UHGV virus genome: UHGV-0286546
Length of the DNA stretch: 64,000 bases
Source of the DNA: a virus
Strand: one strand, 5' to 3'
Below, piece by piece: positions 9,383 to 42,530 of this stretch. How positions within the stretch are numbered: position 1 is the stretch's first letter; every line of letters starts with the position of its first letter. The position numbers and the translations under genes were made by a program. Below the pieces are notes generated by a model, which was given only the letters and a program-made list of their open reading frames with translations, was not told the DNA's origin and did no database searches.

Positions 9383-11344
9383 TTATCTAGCAGTAACAGT
9401 AACGTTTGCATCACTACCTTGAATAACACTATTCAAAATAATGACTTCAGCTGTATAAACTGGCCATAAGTAAACGTCAATTACCATTTGATTGTTTGCA
9501 ATTACTAACGGTGTATTGTTTTCTTCGTTACAAACAACACTATATTTAGTAATACCTTCAGCAGACAAGATTGAATTTAAGAAGCTGTTGAACTGTAATG
9601 TGATTTGCATACGTTCATAAGCTGTGTTGTTTTCAAACAAGTGCCATTTAGCTGCATCACGTAATACAGTCTCAATGTAGATAACTGTTCTTGCAACGTT
9701 AATACGATCTAATGCAGAAGGTTTAGCTTGTAACGTTCTTTGACCCCAGTTAACATAACCAGCACTCGGATCTTTAATAATGCAGTTAATCTGGTTGTCT
9801 GTATAGATGTTACCGCCTTTAGTCTGATCGTAGTATTGAGTCAAACCAGTCGGAGAAACAACAGCAGAAGTTAAGACACCTCTATTTAAACCTGCAGGAG
9901 CCATCCAAGGCTGACCATTACCCATAATTTTAGCAACATACGCAGATGGGCACATTACAAAATTTGCACGACCTTGAACTGAATCATATGTTTTAACCCA
10001 AGGAGCAGAAACAGCACCACGATAAGAGTTAAAGCCTTGAATATTCTTACGCCAATCAACTAAGTTTTCGTAATCAGTCTCAGTCATCGGGCAGTCAAAC
10101 AAGCAGAAGCAGTCACGACGATGTTCGGCGATTTCTAACATTTTAGCCTGATAAGAAACATTGCCTTTGTTGACATAACCACTGTTCATCAAGAGCGAAA
10201 CACCAACTTGTGATCTGTCTTTGAAATTATCCCAAGCAGCATTCAAATCAGTATATTTAGCATTCGCATCTTTCCATGTACCAGATTTACCACCAGTCAA
10301 TGCAACGTTTTCAACAAATTCAGGAATAACAATAGCATCTGGATTTGCTTGAACAAAATTCTGGTTTACAAATACTTGAATGTAATTAGAAGTACCGTTT
10401 ACAACGTCTTCAACATACATTGAGTTACCGTAGCTATCTTGGCTCGGATACAATGTACAATATTCAAACGTTTCAAGAGTTTGCATAACGCGACCAACTT
10501 TCTCAATAACTGACAAAGTGAAAGTTGTTTGATCATCATCTGGATAACGACCTACACGTGCATTTGAATCATTTGTCTGTGTTTCAATACTATTAACGAA
10601 GAATGAAACTGTACTAGATTGTCCGTTAACTGTCCAATCATATACTTTAAATGTACCATTCAACGCTTCATTAGACATTCTAGAAACAACAATAGATGCA
10701 CCTAATTCTAATCCATCAACAACACTCGCCGGAACAGTAATCGTAACTAATGTTCTACCTGTATCTCCAGATTCTTCTTCGAATTTAGTAGGAGCAGTTA
10801 CAGCATATGCACGATTTTCATTAATCGTACTATCTGATAAGGAGATATAGAATTTTCTGTTGTTCGGGTCGGTTGCAGTAACAATGAAAGCAGAATCTAA
10901 ATCGTCGCTAGCAAATAAACCAGATTCAGCACCGGAGTCACGAGATGTCTGAGCTGCTGTAATTTCTTCATAAAAATACCCATTTGAAACAGGCATTTCT
11001 TTAACACTGCCTTGAACAGGAATTGTAGCTGCAGCCCAATGAGCATCATTTACACGGTCTTCTGCAGGTAATTCTGGATCACCAGTCGGAACTACACGTA
11101 CAAAGTAATGTTCACCAATTGTATCTGACGCAACTGCTAAAGAATAACCAGCATAACCGTATTTGGAACTTAATGAACCAAAACGACCAGTATAATCTTG
11201 CAGCGTAGATAACAGAGTTGGAGTATTAATCGGTCCATATTCAGCTTCACCGACATAAGCACATGCTGTCGTAGTATTTGTAGCGACAACTCCACTTAAA
11301 TCTTTAATAGAAGCATAAATTCCCGGAAATTTATAGTTGGCCAT
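9383..11344 (-). CDS. contractile tail sheath protein (653 aa)
   Basis: N-terminus MANYKFPGIYASIKDLSGVV...YVGEAEYGPINTPTLLSTLQDYTGRFG matches the hallmark sheath N-terminal motif (xPGVYxxExDxS ... GPxxxPxLhTSxxxFxxxFG); size typical of sheath. Confidence 0.8.
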   Translation of the reverse strand: MANYKFPGIYASIKDLSGVVATNTTTACAYVGEAEYGPINTPTLLSTLQDYTGRFGSLSSKYGYAGYSLAVASDTIGEHYFVRVVPTGDPELPAEDRVNDAHWAAATIPVQGSVKEMPVSNGYFYEEITAAQTSRDSGAESGLFASDDLDSAFIVTATDPNNRKFYISLSDSTINENRAYAVTAPTKFEEESGDTGRTLVTITVPASVVDGLELGASIVVSRMSNEALNGTFKVYDWTVNGQSSTVSFFVNSIETQTNDSNARVGRYPDDDQTTFTLSVIEKVGRVMQTLETFEYCTLYPSQDSYGNSMYVEDVVNGTSNYIQVFVNQNFVQANPDAIVIPEFVENVALTGGKSGTWKDANAKYTDLNAAWDNFKDRSQVGVSLLMNSGYVNKGNVSYQAKMLEIAEHRRDCFCLFDCPMTETDYENLVDWRKNIQGFNSYRGAVSAPWVKTYDSVQGRANFVMCPSAYVAKIMGNGQPWMAPAGLNRGVLTSAVVSPTGLTQYYDQTKGGNIYTDNQINCIIKDPSAGYVNWGQRTLQAKPSALDRINVARTVIYIETVLRDAAKWHLFENNTAYERMQITLQFNSFLNSILSAEGITKYSVVCNEENNTPLVIANNQMVIDVYLWPVYTAEVIILNSVIQGSDANVTVTAR

Positions 11345-13731: not shown

Positions 13732-15018
13732 TTATCTAGCAAGCGGAAAAGCATCACTAGTTTTATTTACTTTATATGTGTCGCCGTCTAATTCAAGTAA
13801 TACGTTTTCGACATGTAATTTTTTAGGTAATAAATTTTTGTCGATCTGAGATACTTTATATGCATTATCTTTACGTTCATCATATTCCTGATCGACATGT
13901 ACAGCTTCTGAACCTTCGCCGATTTTATTCTTCAAAGCAGCAACAACATCTGCAACGGAAATACGAACATCAGGAACAAAATTTAACGGACCAGCATAGT
14001 TAGACTCTTTTACCGCTTCTCTTTGTAATTGATTTTTACTTGCCATGTGCCAATATAATTCAGATGGAGTAATGTTATAATCTAATAACTCATCAATTTC
14101 ACCGTACTTCGTTAAAATTAAATATGGATCTGCTTCAGGATCTCCGTTCATTTCTTTTTCTGCTTCTACAACGAAGGCGTGTTTATCCTCTTCAGACATA
14201 GAAGCAAGAAAGTTATCCATAACACGAGCTTCAAAATTCGCAAGACCAAGAGCTGGATTAATCGGTTTTAAATTATACTTTGTTTTTTCTGCTACCGCTT
14301 CTCTTTGTAATTGATTTTTACTTGCCATGTGCCAATATAATTCAGACGGAGTAATATTATAAGCTAACATATCATCAATTTTACCATAATTGGCCAAAAT
14401 TAAATATGGATCGGCTTCTGGGTCTCCGTTCATCTCTTTTTCACATTCTATAACAAAGTCTTGCTTATCTTCTTCGGACATTGAAGCGAGTAATTCATCC
14501 ATTACATATGCTTCAAAATTTGCCTGACTAAGAGCCGGATTGATCGGTTTAAAATTATAATTTGTTTTTTCTGCTAAATACTGTTCACAAGTTTTACCAT
14601 TCAAAATACTTTCAACGAATTTAGCCAAATGAGATTCACCAAAAGAATGTTTATTTTCTTCGCAATCACAGCAATCGTCTGTAGTTTTAACGATTTTCAA
14701 TGAAGTAACATCAGAATCTTCGTTATCACCGGCGGAAATATCAACCAGATCATTGGCCATATCTTCAACAGCTTTTTCGAAAGAATTTCCAGTATCAGAA
14801 GATTTACCAAAATCATTGTCGTTTGACATATTAGCTTTGTTAACTAAATTTTCTTGATCGGTAATTTCACCTTGCGCAAATTCACCCGGCTCAACGTTAG
14901 CCATTCCCATTTCTTCGAAGGAAGGCACAATATTGTTACTCATGATTTCTTTTGAACTTTCAACACCTTCGTTCAAATTTTTAGAAATAGCTTCTAACAT
15001 ACGTTCTCTAAGATTCAT
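13732..15018 (-). CDS. hypothetical protein (428 aa) with internal ~95-aa tandem duplication
   Basis: Two near-identical segments (KTNYNFKPINPAL...ELYWHMASKNQLQREAV) from a ~285-bp tandem DNA duplication around 14005..14575. Confidence 0.6.
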   Translation of the reverse strand: MNLRERMLEAISKNLNEGVESSKEIMSNNIVPSFEEMGMANVEPGEFAQGEITDQENLVNKANMSNDNDFGKSSDTGNSFEKAVEDMANDLVDISAGDNEDSDVTSLKIVKTTDDCCDCEENKHSFGESHLAKFVESILNGKTCEQYLAEKTNYNFKPINPALSQANFEAYVMDELLASMSEEDKQDFVIECEKEMNGDPEADPYLILANYGKIDDMLAYNITPSELYWHMASKNQLQREAVAEKTKYNLKPINPALGLANFEARVMDNFLASMSEEDKHAFVVEAEKEMNGDPEADPYLILTKYGEIDELLDYNITPSELYWHMASKNQLQREAVKESNYAGPLNFVPDVRISVADVVAALKNKIGEGSEAVHVDQEYDERKDNAYKVSQIDKNLLPKKLHVENVLLELDGDTYKVNKTSDAFPLAR

Positions 15019-15478: not shown

Positions 15479-16567
15479 TTAACCGAAAAAACGTTTTGTA
15501 AAACGTGATTCTTCAGCTGTTTCTGCAATGAAGTTATTTGCGTCAACAGATTCATTGAAAGCTGCAACGTATTTACCATATTTAGAGTCATAAACACGAA
15601 CACATTCTTTCAAAGAGCGATTGTCAAAAGTAGAAACGATTTTAGCAATAGCTTCTTCTTTCAAACCAGTTTTTTCTGTAGACAGAGCTTCAACCAATGC
15701 CATATAATCTTTACCAGATTTAGCAGATTCTTCGTAAGCACACAAAGCAGATTCGAGAACTTCAGTTTCAGCACCCATGTCATCGTCTTGCATCATCGGA
15801 GCAGGAGCAGCATCGAAAGAATCCATTTCGTCAGCAGATTCAAATGTTTTTTCAGGATAGATTTCACCAGAATTAGCTTCTGTATCAAAAGCACCCATAA
15901 CTTCGCCAGCTTCAGACAAAGCAATTTCACGTTTACCAGGCTGTAAAGAACCTTTCAATTCAGAAACTCTTTCAGCGAATTTCTTATAATCTGAGAAACT
16001 TTCTTTCTTAACAGAATCGGTTTTTAAGAGTCTCATATTAATCGGAGAATTATCAGCTTCGTCGATCAAGATAGATTCACAAACAACGAATTTAGTCGGA
16101 TTAATACGATTTTCACTGAATTTAGCGAATTTAGATTCAACAGATTCTTTTTCTTCAACATCTAATTCAGCAACTTCGATATTGTCACCAGCATCTTCGC
16201 CTTCAGGAGCATCAGCCAAACTATCGATAACGTCATCAACTTCTTCACCGTCCATAACAGCATCCAAAGCAGGTTTTTCAACAAATTTAACGTCAGACAA
16301 TTCATCAGAAGAAACAACGATGTCAGCGATTTTAGAAGCTAAATCTGCGTCAGAAATAACAACAACTGCAGCAGAACCGTCTAAAGCCATATCACCATCT
16401 GGAGTAGCACCGATTTCTACAGTTTCGCCTTTATCAAATTCAATATCGGCATCTTCTGTTTCGAGAATTAATTTTTTAGTTACAATCCAGCTTTTGCCTT
16501 CTTTAGCACTTTCACGCAAAGCTTCTCTGCAAAGTCTTGCTGAAAGTCTTTTCAAAAATTTTGCCAT
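15479..16567 (-). CDS. highly acidic protein (362 aa), possibly head scaffolding/prohead core protein
   Basis: D/E/A-rich (about 25% acidic), helical, noticeably higher GC than flanks; function inferred only from composition. Confidence 0.4.
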   Translation of the reverse strand: MAKFLKRLSARLCREALRESAKEGKSWIVTKKLILETEDADIEFDKGETVEIGATPDGDMALDGSAAVVVISDADLASKIADIVVSSDELSDVKFVEKPALDAVMDGEEVDDVIDSLADAPEGEDAGDNIEVAELDVEEKESVESKFAKFSENRINPTKFVVCESILIDEADNSPINMRLLKTDSVKKESFSDYKKFAERVSELKGSLQPGKREIALSEAGEVMGAFDTEANSGEIYPEKTFESADEMDSFDAAPAPMMQDDDMGAETEVLESALCAYEESAKSGKDYMALVEALSTEKTGLKEEAIAKIVSTFDNRSLKECVRVYDSKYGKYVAAFNESVDANNFIAETAEESRFTKRFFG

Positions 16568-21518: not shown

Positions 21519-23075
21519 ATGCCAATTTATCAAACACATTCTTTTTGGAATTATATAGCGAACGAATCAGAAACGATTATTAATAAAGTTAAAGATTTAC
21601 TGTATATTGAAAAATATAATTATGAAACAAAAGATTATGAAATCGCTCACTATTTTCAAGAAGTTGCCAAATTAAAAATAGAAGATTCGGTGTATATTAC
21701 TCTTCGCGTTCCGGCTGGTTTAACTCAATATCTTTTAGATAAAACAACTTTATTATTAGAAAAGAAAGAATATCCAGAAAAAAGATATAGTGAAAACGAA
21801 ATATTAAGAGTCGCTGAAGAAATTAAACAAATAAATCCCCAATTTGAAATAAGAGAGTATCAAACTGAAGCTGCTCTTACTTCTCTGAATCAATTTCAAA
21901 GTTTAATTGAAGCTAGTGTCGGAAGTGGTAAAACTAGCATTATGTCTTTTGTTTGTAAGATTTTAGAAAATGAAAAAATATTAATCTTAAATGATAATAA
22001 CTTTATTTTAGATCAAATATATAAAAGATTGCTTTCATTTGGTTTAACTAGTATAAGTTGGAATCTCAGTAAAGATCCAGATTATACAAAAAATATCGTT
22101 ATTCTTAATACTAGTGGCTCAGATGCAAAATTAAACAAACAAGATCCAGATTATATAAAGTATCTACAAAACGTGCATACAATTATATACGATGAAGCAC
22201 AACATGTTCAAAGTTTAACATTTTTTGAGCCAATTCTTTATACAGATCCCGAAAAATTGAAACATATCATAGGTTATTCAGGTAGTCCTTTTCGTTGCTA
22301 CAAACATCCCTACGATGATTTCGATGATTTTAGAACAATAGCAATTCTAGGTGAACCAGCTTTTAAATATACAATGTCAGATGCGATAAAAGACGGTAAT
22401 ATCGCACAACCTTACGGATACTTTATTAGATATAATAATAAACCTGGATATGTACCCGAACAATTTAAAGATAACTATTTCATGCAATACCGAGCAAATA
22501 TCATATATAATAAAAATAGAAACAAAGCCGGTTTGGAAATGCTAAAATTCTTAAATAAACATAATATTAAAACACTCGCTTCTTTTAATAATATAAAACC
22601 AGGGCAAAATATGATGAAGATGTTAAAAGAAGAAGGAATATCAGCAATTTTTAGTTGTGGTAATGAAACTCTTTATGAATGGCTACCCAACAAAAGAGGA
22701 ACTTTAAAATTAGATGTACGGAAAGGAAACACTGATGATATTAAAATTGCATTACAAAGTGGATACAATATAATCTTCGGTAGTCAAGTATTAGACGAAG
22801 GCGTTGATATATCAGAATTTCAAGCTGCTGTTTTATTTAGTGCTGGGAAAACACCTATTGCTGGTATTCAAAGGATTGGTCGAGCAAGTAGAAAAAGAAA
22901 AAACGAATTGAATGTTTCTTTAGTTATTGATTTCCAAGACATTAATGGTTATTATAAATTTCAAGAGCATTATATATTACGAAAACAAATGATGGTTGAT
23001 TCTGGCGTTAAAATATTTGCAAATGTACAAGATTTTATAAGTATGGTTGAACAAATTAGTAGCCAGAATAAATAA
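21519..23075 (+). CDS. superfamily-2 DNA/RNA helicase (DEAQ-box, 518 aa)
   Basis: Motif I ASVGSGKTS, motif II IIYDEAQHV, motif VI IQRIGRASRKRK. Confidence 0.8.
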   Translation: MPIYQTHSFWNYIANESETIINKVKDLLYIEKYNYETKDYEIAHYFQEVAKLKIEDSVYITLRVPAGLTQYLLDKTTLLLEKKEYPEKRYSENEILRVAEEIKQINPQFEIREYQTEAALTSLNQFQSLIEASVGSGKTSIMSFVCKILENEKILILNDNNFILDQIYKRLLSFGLTSISWNLSKDPDYTKNIVILNTSGSDAKLNKQDPDYIKYLQNVHTIIYDEAQHVQSLTFFEPILYTDPEKLKHIIGYSGSPFRCYKHPYDDFDDFRTIAILGEPAFKYTMSDAIKDGNIAQPYGYFIRYNNKPGYVPEQFKDNYFMQYRANIIYNKNRNKAGLEMLKFLNKHNIKTLASFNNIKPGQNMMKMLKEEGISAIFSCGNETLYEWLPNKRGTLKLDVRKGNTDDIKIALQSGYNIIFGSQVLDEGVDISEFQAAVLFSAGKTPIAGIQRIGRASRKRKNELNVSLVIDFQDINGYYKFQEHYILRKQMMVDSGVKIFANVQDFISMVEQISSQNK

Positions 23076-28662: not shown

Positions 28663-28737
28663 CGCGGGGTAGAGCATTGGTAGATCACTAGGCTCATAAC
28701 CTAGAGGTAGGTGGTTCGATTCCATCCCCCGCAACCA
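28663..28737 (+). tRNA. tRNA-Met (anticodon CAT), possibly initiator-type (C1-A72 mismatch)
   Basis: Cloverleaf by eye: anticodon stem CTAGG/CCTAG, loop CTCATAA, T-loop TTCGATT, 3' ACCA encoded. Confidence 0.7.
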
Positions 28738-29397: not shown

Positions 29398-29485
29398 GCC
29401 GACTTGCCAGAATTGGTTGAATGGAACGGATTTGTAATCCGTCGGAGTAATCCCATTGCAGGTTCGAATCCTGTGGTCGGCACCA
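29398..29485 (+). tRNA. aberrant class-II-length tRNA (88 nt), anticodon TGT (Thr) in a perfect 5-bp stem/7-nt loop but with a 15-nt extra arm; Tyr (GTA) register does not fold
   Basis: Acceptor GCCGACT/GGTCGGC, anticodon arm ACGGA-TTTGTAA-TCCGT, T-arm GCAGG-TTCGAAT-CCTGT, CCA encoded. Confidence 0.5.
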
Positions 29486-30062: not shown

Positions 30063-30548
30063 ATGAAAATATACACAGACGCCAGTACAAGAAGTAATCT
30101 TTCAGGTTTAGCGTTTATAGTTACTGATGCGAAGAACAAAGTGCAATGTAGAAGAGCGTCTGTTGTAGAAGAAAAAGATAATAACACTGCAGAATTGAGA
30201 GCAATATGTTATGCATTGGCGTATACTAAGTCTGTTGATGAGCCTGTTGTATTAATGACAGATTCAACATATGCGATACAGGCGATAAGAGGTGGATATC
30301 ATAGACCTAATGAAGAAAAATTAATAAACTATATTCATGCTCATATGAAAAATAGAAAGTGTAATATATTTTGGGTGAAAGGACATAACAAAGATGGTAC
30401 TGTCCTTTCTTATTTTAATAAAGAAGCAGATAAGTTAGCAAAACACGTTAGAAAAGAATATGAATATAGTGTAGCTAAACAAAAGAAAATAGATAAACAA
30501 AAAAGATTAGAAGCTGCATTGGTATCTAAGAAAGGAAAAAATAGATGA
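30063..30548 (+). CDS. ribonuclease H (RNase HI-like, 161 aa)
   Basis: Catalytic DEDD pattern: IYTDAST, TAELRAICYAL, LMTDSTYAIQ, WVKGHNKDGTVLSYFNKEADKLAKH. Confidence 0.75.
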   Translation: MKIYTDASTRSNLSGLAFIVTDAKNKVQCRRASVVEEKDNNTAELRAICYALAYTKSVDEPVVLMTDSTYAIQAIRGGYHRPNEEKLINYIHAHMKNRKCNIFWVKGHNKDGTVLSYFNKEADKLAKHVRKEYEYSVAKQKKIDKQKRLEAALVSKKGKNR

Positions 30549-31123
30549 GGACCATAGACTTTTATACAGTTAAAGAAAGTGGTGCAAATATAAATAGAGT
30601 TATATATCATGTTGAAAATTCTGATATTGCTCTTATTAGTGCTTTTCGTTCTGATTCTTCGAAAAAACAAAATTTAGAAAATAATAAAAGATTAGCATTA
30701 GATATACATAATATTGGATTATCGTATATAAAAGTTACTGGTAATTATAAAGAAGAAAATAATTCAGAATTTACAACCGAAGATAGTTTTATAGTAATTC
30801 ATCGTCCAGAATCAAATAAAGCACAAGATGAATTTTTTGAAGAAATGCTTGGATTATGTAGAAAATATAATCAAGATGCAGTATTAATTAGTTTAAAAAA
30901 TCGAAAAGATGTCCCTATTGCTTCGTATGATAGTAATGGAAAAATTGTATATGGTCCATTTACTAAACTTACACTGAGTAATATAGAAGATTTTTATACT
31001 AGAATCCATAATCATAGGTTTAAATTTGAAAGCATTGTAGAATCAGAAGAAGGTATAAAACCGAGCGGATATTCAAATGCCATGCGATATTATGGAACAA
31101 AAGCTTTATTAAAATTAAAATAG
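30545..31123 (+). CDS. hypothetical protein (192 aa); leaderless paralog of 31592..32329
   Basis: Shares FFEEMLGLCRKYNQDAVLISL block with 31592..32329 (FKEEMLALGRKYNQETILLKL). Confidence 0.55.
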   Translation: MRTIDFYTVKESGANINRVIYHVENSDIALISAFRSDSSKKQNLENNKRLALDIHNIGLSYIKVTGNYKEENNSEFTTEDSFIVIHRPESNKAQDEFFEEMLGLCRKYNQDAVLISLKNRKDVPIASYDSNGKIVYGPFTKLTLSNIEDFYTRIHNHRFKFESIVESEEGIKPSGYSNAMRYYGTKALLKLK

Positions 31124-31591: not shown

Positions 31592-32329
31592 ATGTCAAAA
31601 TTTAAAGAAGTAGTAGAAAATGCTTTAAAAGAAAGAGGATTTTCTTTACAAAAACTAACAAATAATCTTGAGATAGATAGTCCGATATGTACGTGTTTTA
31701 TAACTGCATATTTAGAAACAAATGACAAGGAAACAAATATTGCTAATAACAACAAATTAGAATTAAATATTGTATCTCTCGGTTATGAATACGGTTATAA
31801 AAAAATCCTTGGTGGATATGTTTATTCAAATGGAACTTTTGCTAAAGAGCCTGGATTTTTAGTATCTTGTAAAAGAACTAATGTATTACCTGAAGATTTT
31901 AAAGAAGAAATGTTAGCTCTTGGCAGGAAATACAATCAAGAAACTATTTTACTAAAGTTACCAGGAGAAAAACCAGCTTACTATAATACCAGAGGTAATA
32001 AAATAGATGAAAAGGATATTGAATTCGCCTTTACAAAGCAGGTAGATCCAACAAAACCGAAAACACTTTATCCAAATGAAATTACAGCTTGGAGTAAAGG
32101 ATATACTCAATTACAAAAAGATGCAAACAAAGGTAAAAATCAAGCTATTGAATTGACCAATGAAAACTCTTCTGTTTTTGAATCGTTGATATTGACTGAT
32201 GAAGAAATCAATGAATTAAAAGAAGATACCAGAGAAAAATGTTTTTGTAGTGGCTCTGGGATATTAAGAATGGCTGCCTGTAGAGAACATTTGGGTTTAG
32301 AACCTTATCCTTGTCTCAAAAAGCGGTAA
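31592..32329 (+). CDS. member of MS(K/R)F(K/R)TIVEN-leader paralog family (245 aa)
   Basis: N-terminus MSKFKEVVENAL; body homologous to 30545..31123. Confidence 0.6.
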   Translation: MSKFKEVVENALKERGFSLQKLTNNLEIDSPICTCFITAYLETNDKETNIANNNKLELNIVSLGYEYGYKKILGGYVYSNGTFAKEPGFLVSCKRTNVLPEDFKEEMLALGRKYNQETILLKLPGEKPAYYNTRGNKIDEKDIEFAFTKQVDPTKPKTLYPNEITAWSKGYTQLQKDANKGKNQAIELTNENSSVFESLILTDEEINELKEDTREKCFCSGSGILRMAACREHLGLEPYPCLKKR

Positions 32330-32345
32330 TTTGAAAGTGTTTAAA

Positions 32346-32954
32346 ATGTCAAGCTTTAGAGAAATAGTAAATACTATTTTGAAGTCAGCTTTACTTGGTA
32401 AAAATCCTAATGTTGAATCATTAGCTATTATTACAGCTGAAGATTCCTTTGGTAAAAAAATTAACAGAAGAGACAATGCTACTCGATTGAAAGTTTTTAA
32501 GATACAATTGAAGCTAGGAGGTCATCCTTATGAAAACATTGTTGATAAATATGGAAATAAAGAGCATTCTTTTGTAATTTTTAATTTATCAAGATCTGCT
32601 GCTAAAAATTATGCAAAAGTATATGAGCAAGAATCGTTTATTTTTGGCATAAAGAATAAAGATGACATGTTATATGAATATTGGGAAACTGTAGATAATG
32701 GTAAAACTTATAATTTATCTAAAACTACAGATTTTATAAGAAATGAGCCAGAATTAGAAGATTATTTTTCTAGATTACATGATTATAAATTTAATATAGG
32801 CTTTGATTTTAATGAATCTATCGACGAAGAAACTGTAAGAAAATTAGAATCTATTACGACTCCAGAAGATAAGAAATGGATTAAAGAATATATTAATGAA
32901 GAACGTGTAGGTATGGCTTCTTATTTACATTATAAAAAGTTGTATAAAAATTAA
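32346..32954 (+). CDS. member of MSxFxxIVxN-leader paralog family (start at second ATG: MSSFREIVNTIL)
   Basis: Internal Met gives family-consensus N-terminus. Confidence 0.5.
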   Translation: MSSFREIVNTILKSALLGKNPNVESLAIITAEDSFGKKINRRDNATRLKVFKIQLKLGGHPYENIVDKYGNKEHSFVIFNLSRSAAKNYAKVYEQESFIFGIKNKDDMLYEYWETVDNGKTYNLSKTTDFIRNEPELEDYFSRLHDYKFNIGFDFNESIDEETVRKLESITTPEDKKWIKEYINEERVGMASYLHYKKLYKN

Positions 32955-34562: not shown

Positions 34563-34650
34563 GGAGGAATGGCAGAGTGGCTTAATGCAGCGGTTTACTA
34601 AACCGTCGTACCGAAAGGTGCCGTGGGTTCAAATCCTACTTCCTCCGCCA
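34563..34650 (+). tRNA. class II tRNA (88 nt, Ser-like architecture) with non-canonical anticodon loop TTACTAA (ACT by standard register)
   Basis: Acceptor GGAGGAA/TTCCTCC, anticodon arm (G)CGGT-TTACTAA-ACCG(T), variable-arm hairpin GTACC-GAAA-GGTGC, T-arm GTGGG-TTCAAAT-CCTAC, CCA encoded. Confidence 0.5.
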
Positions 34651-34657
34651 ATTTATT

Positions 34658-34751
34658 AGGTCTGTCGTTCAATGGTTAGGACACTAGGCTTATACCCTAG
34701 CGAGCGTCTGATTAACGCGAAATCCCAGTTCGAGTCTGGGCGGACCTACCA
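34658..34751 (+). tRNA. 94-nt tRNA-like gene: anticodon arm CTAGG-CTTATAC-CCTAG (TAT) followed by a 23-nt extra arm that itself looks like an anticodon stem-loop (GCGT-CTGATTA-ACGC)
   Basis: Acceptor AGGTCTG/CGGACCT, D-arm GTTC-AATGGTTA-GGAC, T-arm CCCAG-TTCGAGT-CTGGG, CCA encoded. Confidence 0.45.
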
Positions 34752-34971: not shown

Positions 34972-35046
34972 TATTATTTCCGGTTTTACAATATTTTTAA
35001 CAAGACATATATTTGTTTATAGATTAACAGAAAAAAGGAAGTGGAT

Positions 35047-36531
35047 ATGTCTGATAATAAAACAATGACTGAAAAAGGTGCTATTACTAATCAATCTACA
35101 TTAGACAAAGTTGTAGATTGGTTTTATCATGGAGCCGCATTACGTAGAGAAAAAAACAAAGACCGTATTATAGCTTTGTTTGATGATGCTTTTAAACAGG
35201 ATAAAACCAAAGCATTGCGTATTTTATTTTATATTCGTGATATTCGTGGTGGTCAAGGTGAAAGACGCATTTTTAGAATTTGCTTAAATCATTTGGCAAA
35301 AATAGAATCTGCTTGGTTAAAAGACAATTTGGCATTAATTGCTGAATACGGCAGATATGATGATTATTTGTGCTTGCTTGATACAGAAATTAAAAGTGCT
35401 GTAATTGATTTCGTTAAAGCACAATTAGATAAAGATATTGCTGCAATAGATAGCAATACACCTATTTCATTGCTTGCCAAATGGATGCCTTCCGTTACAA
35501 CCAAGAATAAAGAAAAAAGAAGATATTTAAATGCTCTTTTGAATTCTGGTAAATTTGGCACAGTAAAAAATTATAGACAAACGTTATCTAAACTTCGTGA
35601 TAAATTAAATATTGTTGAAAAGAATCTTTGCAATAAAGCCTTTGCTGAAATTGAATATTCTAAAGTTTCTTCTAATGCAATGTCTAAGTATTCAAAAACT
35701 AGAATTTCATCTGGATTAGCTGGTACTTTTTGGCGCAATGACTTAGATAGATTTAAAATGTATTTAGACGCTGTTAAAAACGGTAAAACAATCGACGGCA
35801 AAGAAGTAAAAATAAATGCAAAAACCTTATATCCATATGATGTTATTACAAAATATATGAGTGGTTATAGTATAAGTCATCAAGAAGATCCTGCAGCGGA
35901 AGCTCAATGGAATGCTTTACCTGATTATGTACCAGAGATTAACGGCATTGTAATTTATGATACTTCGGGTTCAATGTATGGATTACCTATGGCTGTATCT
36001 TTGTCGTTGGCTATTTATATTGCTGAAAGAAATAAATCAGAAGTTTGGCGTAATTATGTTATTCCATTCTCATCTAATGCGACTTGGAAAAAAGTAAAGG
36101 GTAACAATTTAGTAGAAAAAATTGAATCTATTTATACTGGAGATTGTTCAAATACTAATTTACAAGCAGCCTTTGATCTTATTTTAGGTAAAGCTATATA
36201 TGCGCAAGTACCTAAAGAAGATATGCCAAAACAGCTGATTATTATTAGTGATATGGAATTTGATTCGGTTTCTTCTAATAACCAAACTAATTATGAAGCT
36301 ATAAAAAGCAAATATAAGAAAGCTGGTTATGACTTACCACAATTAATCTGGTGGAACGTTGAATCAAGAAGCAATCAAACACCGATTACAGTAAATGATA
36401 AAAATTGTTTATTGCTTTCTGGCTGTTCACCGGTAGTTATGCAAGTAGCTTTGGGTGGTTCATACGATTTTATGGAAGCAATCGATAAAATTATTAACCA
36501 AGAACGTTATAGTTGCATCAATTATAATTAG
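35047..36531 (+). CDS. von Willebrand factor A (vWA) domain protein with DUF2828/TROVE-like N-terminal region
   Basis: MIDAS motif IVIYDTSGSMYG; N-terminal ALRILFYIRDIRGGQGERRIF block reminiscent of DUF2828-type proteins (uncertain); ATG at 35047 preferred over GTG at 35041. Confidence 0.6.
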   Translation: MSDNKTMTEKGAITNQSTLDKVVDWFYHGAALRREKNKDRIIALFDDAFKQDKTKALRILFYIRDIRGGQGERRIFRICLNHLAKIESAWLKDNLALIAEYGRYDDYLCLLDTEIKSAVIDFVKAQLDKDIAAIDSNTPISLLAKWMPSVTTKNKEKRRYLNALLNSGKFGTVKNYRQTLSKLRDKLNIVEKNLCNKAFAEIEYSKVSSNAMSKYSKTRISSGLAGTFWRNDLDRFKMYLDAVKNGKTIDGKEVKINAKTLYPYDVITKYMSGYSISHQEDPAAEAQWNALPDYVPEINGIVIYDTSGSMYGLPMAVSLSLAIYIAERNKSEVWRNYVIPFSSNATWKKVKGNNLVEKIESIYTGDCSNTNLQAAFDLILGKAIYAQVPKEDMPKQLIIISDMEFDSVSSNNQTNYEAIKSKYKKAGYDLPQLIWWNVESRSNQTPITVNDKNCLLLSGCSPVVMQVALGGSYDFMEAIDKIINQERYSCINYN

Positions 36532-38783: not shown

Positions 38784-38860
38784 GGCGATGTAGTTCAGCC
38801 GGTTAGAACGTATCCCTCATAAGGATAAGGTCACTTGTTCGAGTCAAGTCATCGCTACCA
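38784..38860 (+). tRNA. tRNA-Met or Ile2 (anticodon CAT), second CAT tRNA
   Basis: Acceptor GGCGATG/CATCGCT, anticodon arm TATCC-CTCATAA-GGATA, T-loop TTCGAGT, CCA. Confidence 0.75.
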
Positions 38861-41774: not shown

Positions 41775-42530
41775 ATGAGTAAGTTTAAAACCATCGTAGA
41801 AAATGCATTATATGAAGTTGGAGCATTGCCTTTTCCAAAAAATATTCAAGTATATGCTAAAAAAGAAAAAGTAAATTTATTTGAAATTAAATATTTACGA
41901 AAAGATGGTAAATTGGATGAACCAGGTGGAATTTGTTATGCTAAAACTGGAATTTGGAAAGATATCCGTGAAAATGAAAATGCTTTTATACGCACGCAAT
42001 TAGATGAAAAATTTAGACCAGATCAAGGCAATTTTAGTAAATATCGTGGTGGTATGATTGTATTTGCTCTGAGTGTCAATACTGTCATTGATAAATTGAA
42101 TTATAATCAATTAGTTGCAGAAATTAAAAAGATTTGGTATACCTTAATAAACAATACCTTTAAAAATAAAATGATTAAAGGTGTAGTTAATTCTATGAAA
42201 AATACTTATGCTAACATTGAAGATGCAGAGATCGGAGGTATTACAATAGGTAATAACTTTAAAGGCATGTATTTTGATGGTAATAAAGTATATAATGATA
42301 AATCAACGAGTTTAGAAATAAATGACATTTCTAGTGAGATGTTGTTATTACTAGCTATTGAAATTTGTAAAGCATTTCGTCAAGATAGCGTTTTAATCAA
42401 AGATTTCAATAAAAATAAATTCTTTTTGTGTGATTCTGAAGAAGTAGAAGGCGAAATTCCAGAAGAAAAAATAAAAAACGCTTCTAAAGACTTAGCAAAC
42501 TTAAAGAATGTAAATACAAAAACAAAATAA
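41775..42530 (+). CDS. leader-family member (MSKFKTIVENALYE), 251 aa hypothetical
   Basis: Conserved N-terminus. Confidence 0.55.
   Translation: MSKFKTIVENALYEVGALPFPKNIQVYAKKEKVNLFEIKYLRKDGKLDEPGGICYAKTGIWKDIRENENAFIRTQLDEKFRPDQGNFSKYRGGMIVFALSVNTVIDKLNYNQLVAEIKKIWYTLINNTFKNKMIKGVVNSMKNTYANIEDAEIGGITIGNNFKGMYFDGNKVYNDKSTSLEINDISSEMLLLLAIEICKAFRQDSVLIKDFNKNKFFLCDSEEVEGEIPEEKIKNASKDLANLKNVNTKTK

Follow-up and report, generated by a model that had tools for sequence, protein, structure and literature searches.

Do two adjacent, oversized transfer RNA (tRNA)-like genes, one with the anticodon ACU and the other with UAU and an additional anticodon-like arm, encode tRNAs that take part in decoding, and if so, which codons do they read and what would ensure that they are charged with the right amino acid? 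The question is raised by the virus genome UHGV-0286546, of which we analyzed a stretch of 64,000 nucleotides (hereafter the window). It belongs to an AT-rich myovirus (G+C content about 30%) carrying a cluster of 20 tRNA genes, all on the plus strand between 28.6 and 43.6 kb. A prior reading based on the letters of the DNA, which we term the sequence-only reading, had singled out the two genes and considered that they might be specialized decoders, decoys or structural RNAs. The interpretation that we favor, and to which we give about an even chance of being right in full, is that both genes are functional, with the first specifying a serine tRNA specialized for AGU, and the second an AUA-decoding isoleucine tRNA whose additional arm, by presenting the triplet GAU, would secure its isoleucine identity.

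Both genes are recognized as tRNAs by ARAGORN and by the Rfam tRNA model (RF00005), with scores that exceed the gathering score of 29 bits and lie within the range of those of the neighboring tRNAs (Table 1). Each keeps its non-standard anticodon in these analyses, i.e. neither is converted to tRNA-Ser(GCU) or an ordinary tRNA-Ile, and the lengths, arms, loops and encoded CCA that had been described for the two genes were recovered in every detail; 7 nucleotides separate them. Across 182 nucleotides the two tRNAs show no difference in either of two independent assemblies, namely L023 (Logan SRR14784663, found via a neighboring protein) and L042 (a contig from a Succinivibrionaceae metagenome-assembled genome or MAG, found via a DNA pattern), which are 96-97% identical to the window across 8-9 kb. 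Hence, the key positions are not sequencing errors, a possibility that the sequence-only reading had raised against itself. In the same two loci, the tRNA genes taken together have 3-4 differences per 650-725 nucleotides (0.5%) versus 3.9-4.0% in the other DNA, and the two genes are under purifying selection just as the neighboring ordinary tRNAs are. Their unusual length and non-standard anticodons are typical of pseudogene calls, and decay is real in one neighboring family (the L031 orthologue of the tRNA(CAT) of the window has a mismatched acceptor stem). Nevertheless, it is hardly credible that the two are pseudogenes in decay, or artifacts of assembly or of chance folding into a tRNA-like shape: independent assemblies agree on both to the letter, all their stems pair and show many compensatory changes, CCA is encoded, and they are kept across many phage lineages and environments. 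As judged from these features, both are real and probably functional phage tRNAs, with their expression and charging being predicted. The full tRNA architecture, the encoded CCA, the covarying stems and a level of selection like that of the neighboring tRNAs likewise argue against a decoy or a purely structural RNA. The idea of a functional tandem pair also did not hold, as relatives carry either gene without the other. On an unrelated viral contig of 230 kb with 44% GC (L059), a tRNA-Ser(ACU) (L059:2638-2725) is followed within 50 nucleotides by a tRNA-Ile(UAU) of ordinary length (2776-2851, 76 nucleotides), an adjacency that could reflect either chance or an old linkage.

The first gene displays the class II architecture of tRNA-Ser in the ARAGORN drawing, with the acceptor stem GGAGGAA/TTCCTCC, G73, an encoded CCA, the 3-bp D stem of a class II D arm and a long variable arm of 5 bp. 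It shares the 3-bp D stem, long variable arm, G73 and CCA with the bacterial and phage tRNA-Ser(GCU), and its anticodon arm is the same as theirs except at position 34; it differs in having A34 in place of G34 and in belonging to a persistent phage lineage of its own. The anticodon ACU, which is found in the window and 29 homologous genes, is outside the standard bacterial serine set (NGA or GCU). Diverged relatives of the phage, which were reached through homologs of the DUF2828 protein encoded next to the pair (57-67% amino-acid identity), encode tRNA-Ser(ACU) in three further lineages of the clade (L030, L031/32/34 and L035). The acceptor stems and variable arms of these tRNAs differ from those in the window, and in L030 the anticodon stem differs too. 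ACU is retained despite a changed anticodon stem in both L030 (TCTGA/TCAGA) and the cultured Salmonella jumbo phage Munch (ACGGT/ACCGT); the lineage L024 has a tRNA-Ser(GCU) at the syntenic position. An alignment of five sequences of this tRNA-Ser family shows pairing in 100/100 cells and compensatory changes in 10 of the 20 pairs. The exact ACU arm was found on 20 IMG/VR contigs from many samples, comprising 12 distinct tRNA sequences. In the set of homologs that we compiled (L030, L031, L035, L043-L062 and phage Munch), every metagenomic member has G73 and CCA, and Munch has A73. The anticodon arm GCGGU-UU[G/A]CUAA-ACCGU is commoner with G34, the corresponding 19-mer occurring in that form on at least 120 viral contigs. 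When compared with 103 distinct GCU relatives, the ACU tRNAs are each other's nearest neighbors, and on a neighbor-joining tree the ACU state requires about 6 changes versus 12.5 with shuffled labels, with the largest pure ACU clade having seven members. This combination of recurrence and clustering indicates that the variant is both recurrent and persistent. In Munch, the gene (loop CUACUAA) is annotated merely as tRNA-Ser, and blastn matches to it are also seen in the relatives 7t3, SE_PL, PHA46, fENko-Kae01 and Hallingskeid. We found no description of a phage tRNA-Ser(ACU) in the literature searched, i.e. open-access papers and bioRxiv.

An orthogonal tRNA-ACU with the loop CU-ACU-AA has been studied in E. 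coli, where it is not deaminated and reads AGU, with AGC and AGA being below detection (PMC11066159). Further, serine identity is independent of the anticodon (PMC9976931). By analogy, the phage tRNA-Ser(ACU) is most likely an AGU-specialist serine tRNA: its A34 would stay unmodified and form a Watson-Crick pair with U, and seryl-tRNA synthetase (SerRS) would charge it since this enzyme ignores the anticodon, which would also be the reason why an ACU anticodon is tolerated. Cells make practically no use of an unmodified A34 in two-codon boxes (PMC11066159). By the identity rules, serine would be the sole NNY two-codon box in which the change from G34 to A has no aminoacylation cost, and A34 is probably confined to the serine tRNA for this reason, given that in the other NNY boxes position 34 is recognized by the synthetase. 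The codon usage and codon columns make specialized decoding the best supported of the three options mentioned above. The window has 277 AGT versus 61 AGC codons (4.5-fold), and the AGT columns of its helicase align to S at a frequency of 0.51, as its TCN columns do, with the same trend in the test of a second protein. The marine contigs that carry tRNA-Ser(ACU) have AGT/AGC ratios of 3-5:1, yet AAT/AAC ratios of about 1:1. Two points weigh against this interpretation, namely that A34 modification could differ in the real host, and that in the window phage the NNT/NNC skew is equal across all pairs, so that codon matching does not single out serine. This equal skew, with A34 occurring only in serine, is consistent with an alternative that we consider unlikely, in which the ACU anticodon mainly allows the tRNA to escape a host tRNase or toxin recognizing the GCU loop. 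Phage tRNAs are known in which an altered anticodon loop gives escape from anticodon nucleases (PMC10264068), and up to about six origins of ACU on the tree of tRNA-Ser(GCU) would fit with such an escape. However, the restriction of A34 to serine is equally well explained by SerRS ignoring the anticodon, and a nuclease specific for tRNA-Ser(GCU) was not found here; to our knowledge none has been described. A still less likely version, in which inosine at position 34 (I34) reads AGU, AGC and AGA, corresponds to the A34-to-I conversion that the sequence-only reading had entertained. I34 would misread AGA, the main arginine codon of the phage (346 codons in the window), and ACU in the same context is not deaminated in E. 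coli (PMC11066159). As an AGU specialist, tRNA-Ser(ACU) would resemble the rare tRNAs with unmodified A34, i.e. those of Mollicutes and the orthogonal tRNA-ACU in E. coli (PMC11066159, PMC3711424), in that A34 is expected to be unmodified and U-ending codons to be preferred. Unlike the known natural cases, which belong to four-codon boxes in reduced genomes, it is phage-encoded, serves a split box and is common to gut, marine and enterobacterial phages.

The second gene combines the acceptor stem AGGTCTG/CGGACCT, A73 and an encoded CCA with a class-I-like D arm (4-bp stem and 8-nt loop), and has the identity-type features A73, A1-U72 and U12-G23. Pattern searches and look-ups of neighboring genes yielded seven distinct homologs of 94-95 nt that constitute its subfamily (L003-6, L025-L030 and L042). 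For these, RNAalifold independently predicts the five-arm structure, with pairing in 175/175 cells and compensatory changes in 11 of the 25 pairs, of which one lies in the extra arm (G-C to A-U); the covariation involves the acceptor, anticodon, variable-arm and T stems. Within the subfamily, the acceptor and T stems vary freely, and the D arm, the anticodon loop and the entire variable region are near-invariant. The loop of the extra arm is CUGAU[A/U][U/A], and in five lineages it takes the form CUGAUAU, which is the anticodon loop of the tRNA-Ile(GAU) of the window. With these homologs and those of tRNA-Ser(ACU), all with compensated stems, the conservation in related phages that had been proposed as a check on the two genes is borne out. 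We also considered the reverse assignment, with the GAU arm serving as anticodon arm and the UAU arm being an insertion. It was rejected, as a canonical UAU loop (U33, A37 and a 5-bp stem) is present throughout and the GAU loop mostly has A at the equivalent of position 33 on a stem of only 3-5 bp. Given its TAT anticodon, the tRNA is also not of the lysidine type, i.e. tRNA-Ile2, in which CAU is converted to LAU by TilS; a separate tRNA(CAT) in the window may fill that role. Arm-deleted versions compared with 294 tRNAs gave no clear nearest isotype from which an ancestral isotype could be read. A search of bacterial genomes with the variable-arm pattern returned one real match, L042, which is the same phage, and three others that were fortuitous and contained no tRNA.

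The anticodon-like extra arm is a real structure and, beyond the subfamily of the window, the defining conserved feature of a large family of phage tRNAs. We recovered 26 distinct long UAU sequences of 90-99 nt in at least eight diverged subfamilies, with about 20 of the gene copies coming from 120 loci that had been fetched as a control for Ser(GCU) and were chosen without regard to isoleucine; only about three distinct short UAU tRNAs occur in the same sample. The sequences of the acceptor, D, T and variable-arm stems are unrelated from one subfamily to another, and the Rfam tRNA model gives members of the other subfamilies 56-67 bits. All 26 have a 7-bp acceptor stem, a 5-bp T stem and a canonical anticodon loop of the form YUUAUAN. 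Their variable region spans 20-29 nt and contains a hairpin of 3-5 bp with a 7-nt loop of the form Y-W-G-A-U-D-D, in which the G, A and U are present in 26/26 sequences above unrelated stems, the commonest loop being CAGAUAA. Other oversized phage tRNAs of class I isotypes have extra arms capped by GNRA tetraloops without a cognate anticodon, and the 7-nt GAU loop is seen only in UAU tRNAs. Examples include the tRNA-Thr(UGU) of the window (88 nt), in which a class-II-like D arm is combined with a short hairpin of the variable arm ending in the GNRA tetraloop GUAA, and Met, Cys, Arg, Lys and Asn tRNAs of other viral contigs (e.g. L028:4345-4431, L077, L089 and L099). A blastn search with four subfamilies of the long UAU tRNA (that of the window and three further ones) found nothing in 50,697 GenBank phage records, and no description of a long-armed or GAU-armed tRNA-Ile(UAU) was found in the literature searched. 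ARAGORN labels two members of 99 nt, L087:2977-3075 (-) and L171:8214-8312 (+), as '???(ctcc)' and 'Glu(ctc)', and such misreadings imply that automatic annotation undercounts or mislabels the family. The GAU-armed UAU tRNAs thus appear to be a widespread, undescribed phage family with the anticodon-like arm as its hallmark.

Like the AGU codon, AUA is in ample use in this phage, with ATA accounting for 415 of the 1315 isoleucine codons in the window. The ATA columns of the helicase have I at 0.63, V at 0.14 and L at 0.06, as compared with I at 0.61 in the ATT/ATC columns and L at 0.56 in the leucine columns, and the ATA trend is also Ile-like in the second protein, although the codon-column tests, for AGT as for ATA, are partly circular, since the homologs are from related phages translated with the standard code. 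ATA is unevenly spread over the genes: there are 21 such codons in the helicase, none in the tail sheath, and one and none, respectively, in two neighboring genes of unknown function, and the capacity to decode AUA may be needed chiefly by non-structural genes, such as those of replication. The predicted tRNA-Ile(UAU) would decode AUA without the need for lysidine and hence for TilS. The E. coli isoleucyl-tRNA synthetase (IleRS) charges UAU tRNAs poorly, a defect cured by the change W905R, and species that use UAU have an alteration of this IleRS Trp, which stacks on base 34 (PMC3575796). More generally, bacterial isoleucine identity depends on the anticodon G34-A35-U36, N6-threonylcarbamoyladenosine at position 37 (t6A37), the discriminator A73 and minor stem pairs including U12-G23 (PMC9976931). 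The long UAU tRNA is exactly the one that is without G34, and a phage cannot change the IleRS of its host. Its fifth arm displays G-A-U, and often G-A-U-A-A, i.e. the identity nucleotides 34-38 of the major tRNA-Ile(GAU), with A38 also being an IleRS determinant in E. coli. The simplest reading of these facts is a transplanted identity signal, whereby the GAU arm would supply the recognition signal for IleRS that is otherwise missing, or secure isoleucine identity in some other manner. In the specific form of this proposal, which we advance as a tentative possibility, the anticodon signal for IleRS would have moved to the fifth arm, with charging occurring via this decoy anticodon and AUA being read by the real UAU independently of TilS.

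Several observations weigh against such a transplanted signal. Class Ia synthetases dock on the D-arm side of the tRNA and normally do not touch the face that bears the variable arm, and an arm of 3-5 bp would end far from the anticodon site. Position 2 of the arm loop is A rather than the equivalent of U33 in 19 of the 26 sequences. The loop positions that correspond to 37 and 38 (6 and 7) are variable, with the window having U at the equivalent of 37, and bacterial IleRS relies strongly on A37 or t6A37. C73 replaces A73 in two lineages. Finally, poor charging of UAU tRNAs is known for IleRS of the E. coli type, with Trp, to which the host enzyme may or may not belong. As regards the geometry, Fukunaga and Yokoyama reportedly found in 2005 that the C-terminal domain of the archaeal leucyl-tRNA synthetase (LeuRS) reads bases at the tip of the variable arm of tRNA-Leu. 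Archaeal LeuRS is a class Ia relative of IleRS, but this concerns another enzyme and another amino acid and hence provides a lead only.

The untouched variable-arm face and the usual A at the equivalent of position 33 also speak for an alternative that we regard as somewhat unlikely, in which the GAU arm has no relation to IleRS and is instead a site for some other factor, such as a U34-modifying enzyme or a phage protein, a decoy or shield against a host anticodon nuclease for tRNA-Ile, or a module for tertiary structure or stability. Extra hairpins are common in phage tRNAs of class I isotypes, as in the above Thr, Arg, Asn, Lys, Cys and Met cases, and changes in phage tRNA loops that evade host tRNases are known (PMC10264068). 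However, those other extra arms are GNRA-capped and have no cognate anticodon, and a generic stabilizer would not need an invariant GAU above unrelated stems. A scan of about 30 proteins of the window recognized no modifying enzyme, including deaminase and TilS, no synthetase or ligase, and no nuclease inhibitor. The loop could alternatively be viewed as mimicking a codon, with positions 4-7 (A-U-A-A) pairing with U33-U36 and thereby masking the anticodon or dimerizing the tRNA, in a regulatory or protective capacity. Indeed, the cognate codon AUA occurs in the loop of 16 of the 26 sequences, and C is never found at positions 6 and 7 (A, G or U only), as would fit pairing with U34 and U33. This possibility is nonetheless quite improbable: the invariant trio is G-A-U and not A-U-A, the G at position 3 has no partner, position 6 is U in 6 of the 26 sequences including that of the window, which would result in a U-U mismatch, and a variable arm reaching the anticodon of its own L-shaped tRNA seems sterically implausible.

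We also weighed whether LeuRS, or another synthetase acting on class II tRNAs, might charge the long-armed tRNA(UAU), which would then place an amino acid other than isoleucine at AUA. In its long variable arm, A73 and A15-U48 Levitt pair, the phage tRNA recalls features on which E. coli LeuRS relies. Moreover, the nematode nev-tRNA-Ile(UAU), which likewise has a long variable arm and a UAU anticodon, is leucylated in vitro (PMC3333845, PMC4300185). The nev-tRNAs, however, are eukaryotic and of the Leu-type class II, in contrast to the phage tRNA with its class-I-like D arm (4-bp stem, 8-nt loop), its short arm with the 7-nt GAU loop and ATA columns that are Ile-like and not Leu-like in the two proteins. 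Added to this, the acceptor stems vary freely, two lineages have C73, and the invariance of GAU would be left unexplained, as bacterial LeuRS ignores the sequence of the variable arm. Leucylation or a similar mischarging is thus very improbable.

A GAU arm that secures isoleucine identity would set the phage family apart from a known solution to reading AUA with UAU, the tRNA-Ile2(UAU) of Mycoplasma mobile and a few other bacteria (PMC3575796). The two are alike in that UAU decodes AUA without lysidine and that the anticodon loop is canonical with U33 and A37, and both face the same problems, namely recognition of U34 by IleRS and possible misreading of AUG. The solution in M. mobile is a change in IleRS (Arg865) combined with an ordinary class I tRNA, whereas the phage tRNA has the extra GAU-presenting arm; correspondingly, the class I body with a variable loop of 4-5 nt is not matched by the phage family, with its 20-29 nt and hairpin. 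The allo-tRNAs (PMC5389517, PMC7609411) are similar in being metagenomic and non-canonical, with long variable arms and UAU frequent among them. They differ in having 8/4 or 9/3 acceptor/T branches and Ser-type identity, as against the 7/5 branches and A73 or C73 of the long UAU family, and membership in the allo-tRNAs was rejected given that 26/26 long UAU tRNAs are 7/5.

Table 1. Positions in the window of the two tRNA genes, their key elements and other features discussed in the text
Feature	Position	Strand	Remarks
tRNA-Ser(ACU)	34563..34650	+	88 nt, class II, G73, encoded CCA; ARAGORN; Rfam tRNA 53.9 bits
Ser anticodon loop UUACUAA	34595..34601	+	ACU at 34597-34599; read from sequence
tRNA-Ile(UAU)	34658..34751	+	94 nt, five-arm cloverleaf, A73, encoded CCA; ARAGORN; Rfam 53.0 bits
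Ile anticodon loop CUUAUAC	34689..34695	+	UAU at 34691-34693; U33, A37; read from sequence
Ile variable region	34701..34723	+	23 nt; stem GCGU 34704-34707 / ACGC 34715-34718
Ile variable-arm loop CUGAUUA	34708-34714	+	7 nt; invariant GAU at 34710-34712
ATA-poor structural-module genes	9383-11344, 13732-15018, 15479-16567	-	ATA absent or nearly so
DEAD/DEAH helicase	21519-23075	+	
tRNA-Met(CAT)	28663-28737	+	C1xA72 mismatch
tRNA-Thr(UGU)	29398-29485	+	
SAM-lyase family and DUF3293 paralogues	30545-31123, 31592-32329, 32331-32954, 41775-42530	+	
DUF2828/DUF7788 protein	35041-36531	+	496 aa
tRNA(CAT)	38784-38860	+	G1-U72

Further features of the genomic neighborhood were noted. Directly 3' of the tRNA pair lies the gene for the DUF2828/DUF7788 protein, which carries the PHROG 850 label 'RNA-binding protein' and whose homolog is labeled a vWA-domain protein by JGI. 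Homologs are found in 711 phage records and, in relatives of the window phage, lie within or next to tRNA clusters; the protein may act in the quality control of tRNA or RNA. Paralogues of the S-adenosylmethionine (SAM)-lyase family and DUF3293 are scattered across the tRNA region, and likewise in L024; depletion of SAM by them, if real, would affect SAM-dependent modification of the phage tRNAs. A scan for promoters and terminators around the tRNA pair gave no signal above background, and a lead concerning tRNA-dependent DNA modification (PMC13219725) proved irrelevant. The C1xA72 mismatch of tRNA-Met(CAT) is a hallmark of bacterial initiators, and the phage may therefore encode its own initiator. 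The other tRNA(CAT) could be an elongator tRNA-Met or the lysidine-type tRNA-Ile2. Its orthologue in L031/32/34 (L031:8025-8099) has the anticodon TAT, mismatches in the acceptor and anticodon stems and no CCA, and looks to be decaying. A gene of 92 nt, L010:1623-1714 (-), has the ends and D arm of a widespread phage tRNA-Ser(UGA) and a rearranged anticodon-arm/variable region; ARAGORN misreads it as Phe(gaa), and it could be disrupted or carry an insertion. The helicase of the window is without an intein, and many of its homologs (P0156, P0162, P0168 and others) are of 830-870 aa with Hom_end/LAGLIDADG, i.e. intein-containing.

As for the host, near-identical copies of the window phage (L042, JBJFGR010000076.1, and P0121) are binned in Succinivibrionaceae MAGs, and a helicase 97% identical to that of the window is also labeled as coming from such a MAG, which is a weak hint. 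The binning weakly suggests a host in Succinivibrionaceae and, together with a gene for an Opacity/OMP outer-membrane beta-barrel protein in the relatives L024 and L031, suggests a Gram-negative host in the rumen or gut. No close cultured relative of the phage was found: the tRNA region has no near match in the 50,697 phage records, and its tail sheath shares only about 25% identity with T4-like phages.

Both tRNA-Ser(ACU) and the long UAU tRNAs are abundant in metagenomic viral contigs, and current annotation hides both. If its A34 is unmodified as we infer, tRNA-Ser(ACU) would represent a natural and recurrent use of such a base in a split box, a situation that wobble theory deems avoided, and would offer a natural system for studying the fidelity of A34 decoding. 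The GAU arm, if it indeed acts as an identity element, would constitute a previously unknown way of specifying tRNA identity that is widespread in uncultivated phages, and would explain how phages decode AUA independently of the host TilS in hosts whose IleRS rejects UAU. It would mean that the sequence read by the synthetase and that read by the ribosome are separated within one tRNA, which would be a new principle of tRNA identity and a ready design for orthogonal or codon-reassigning tRNAs.

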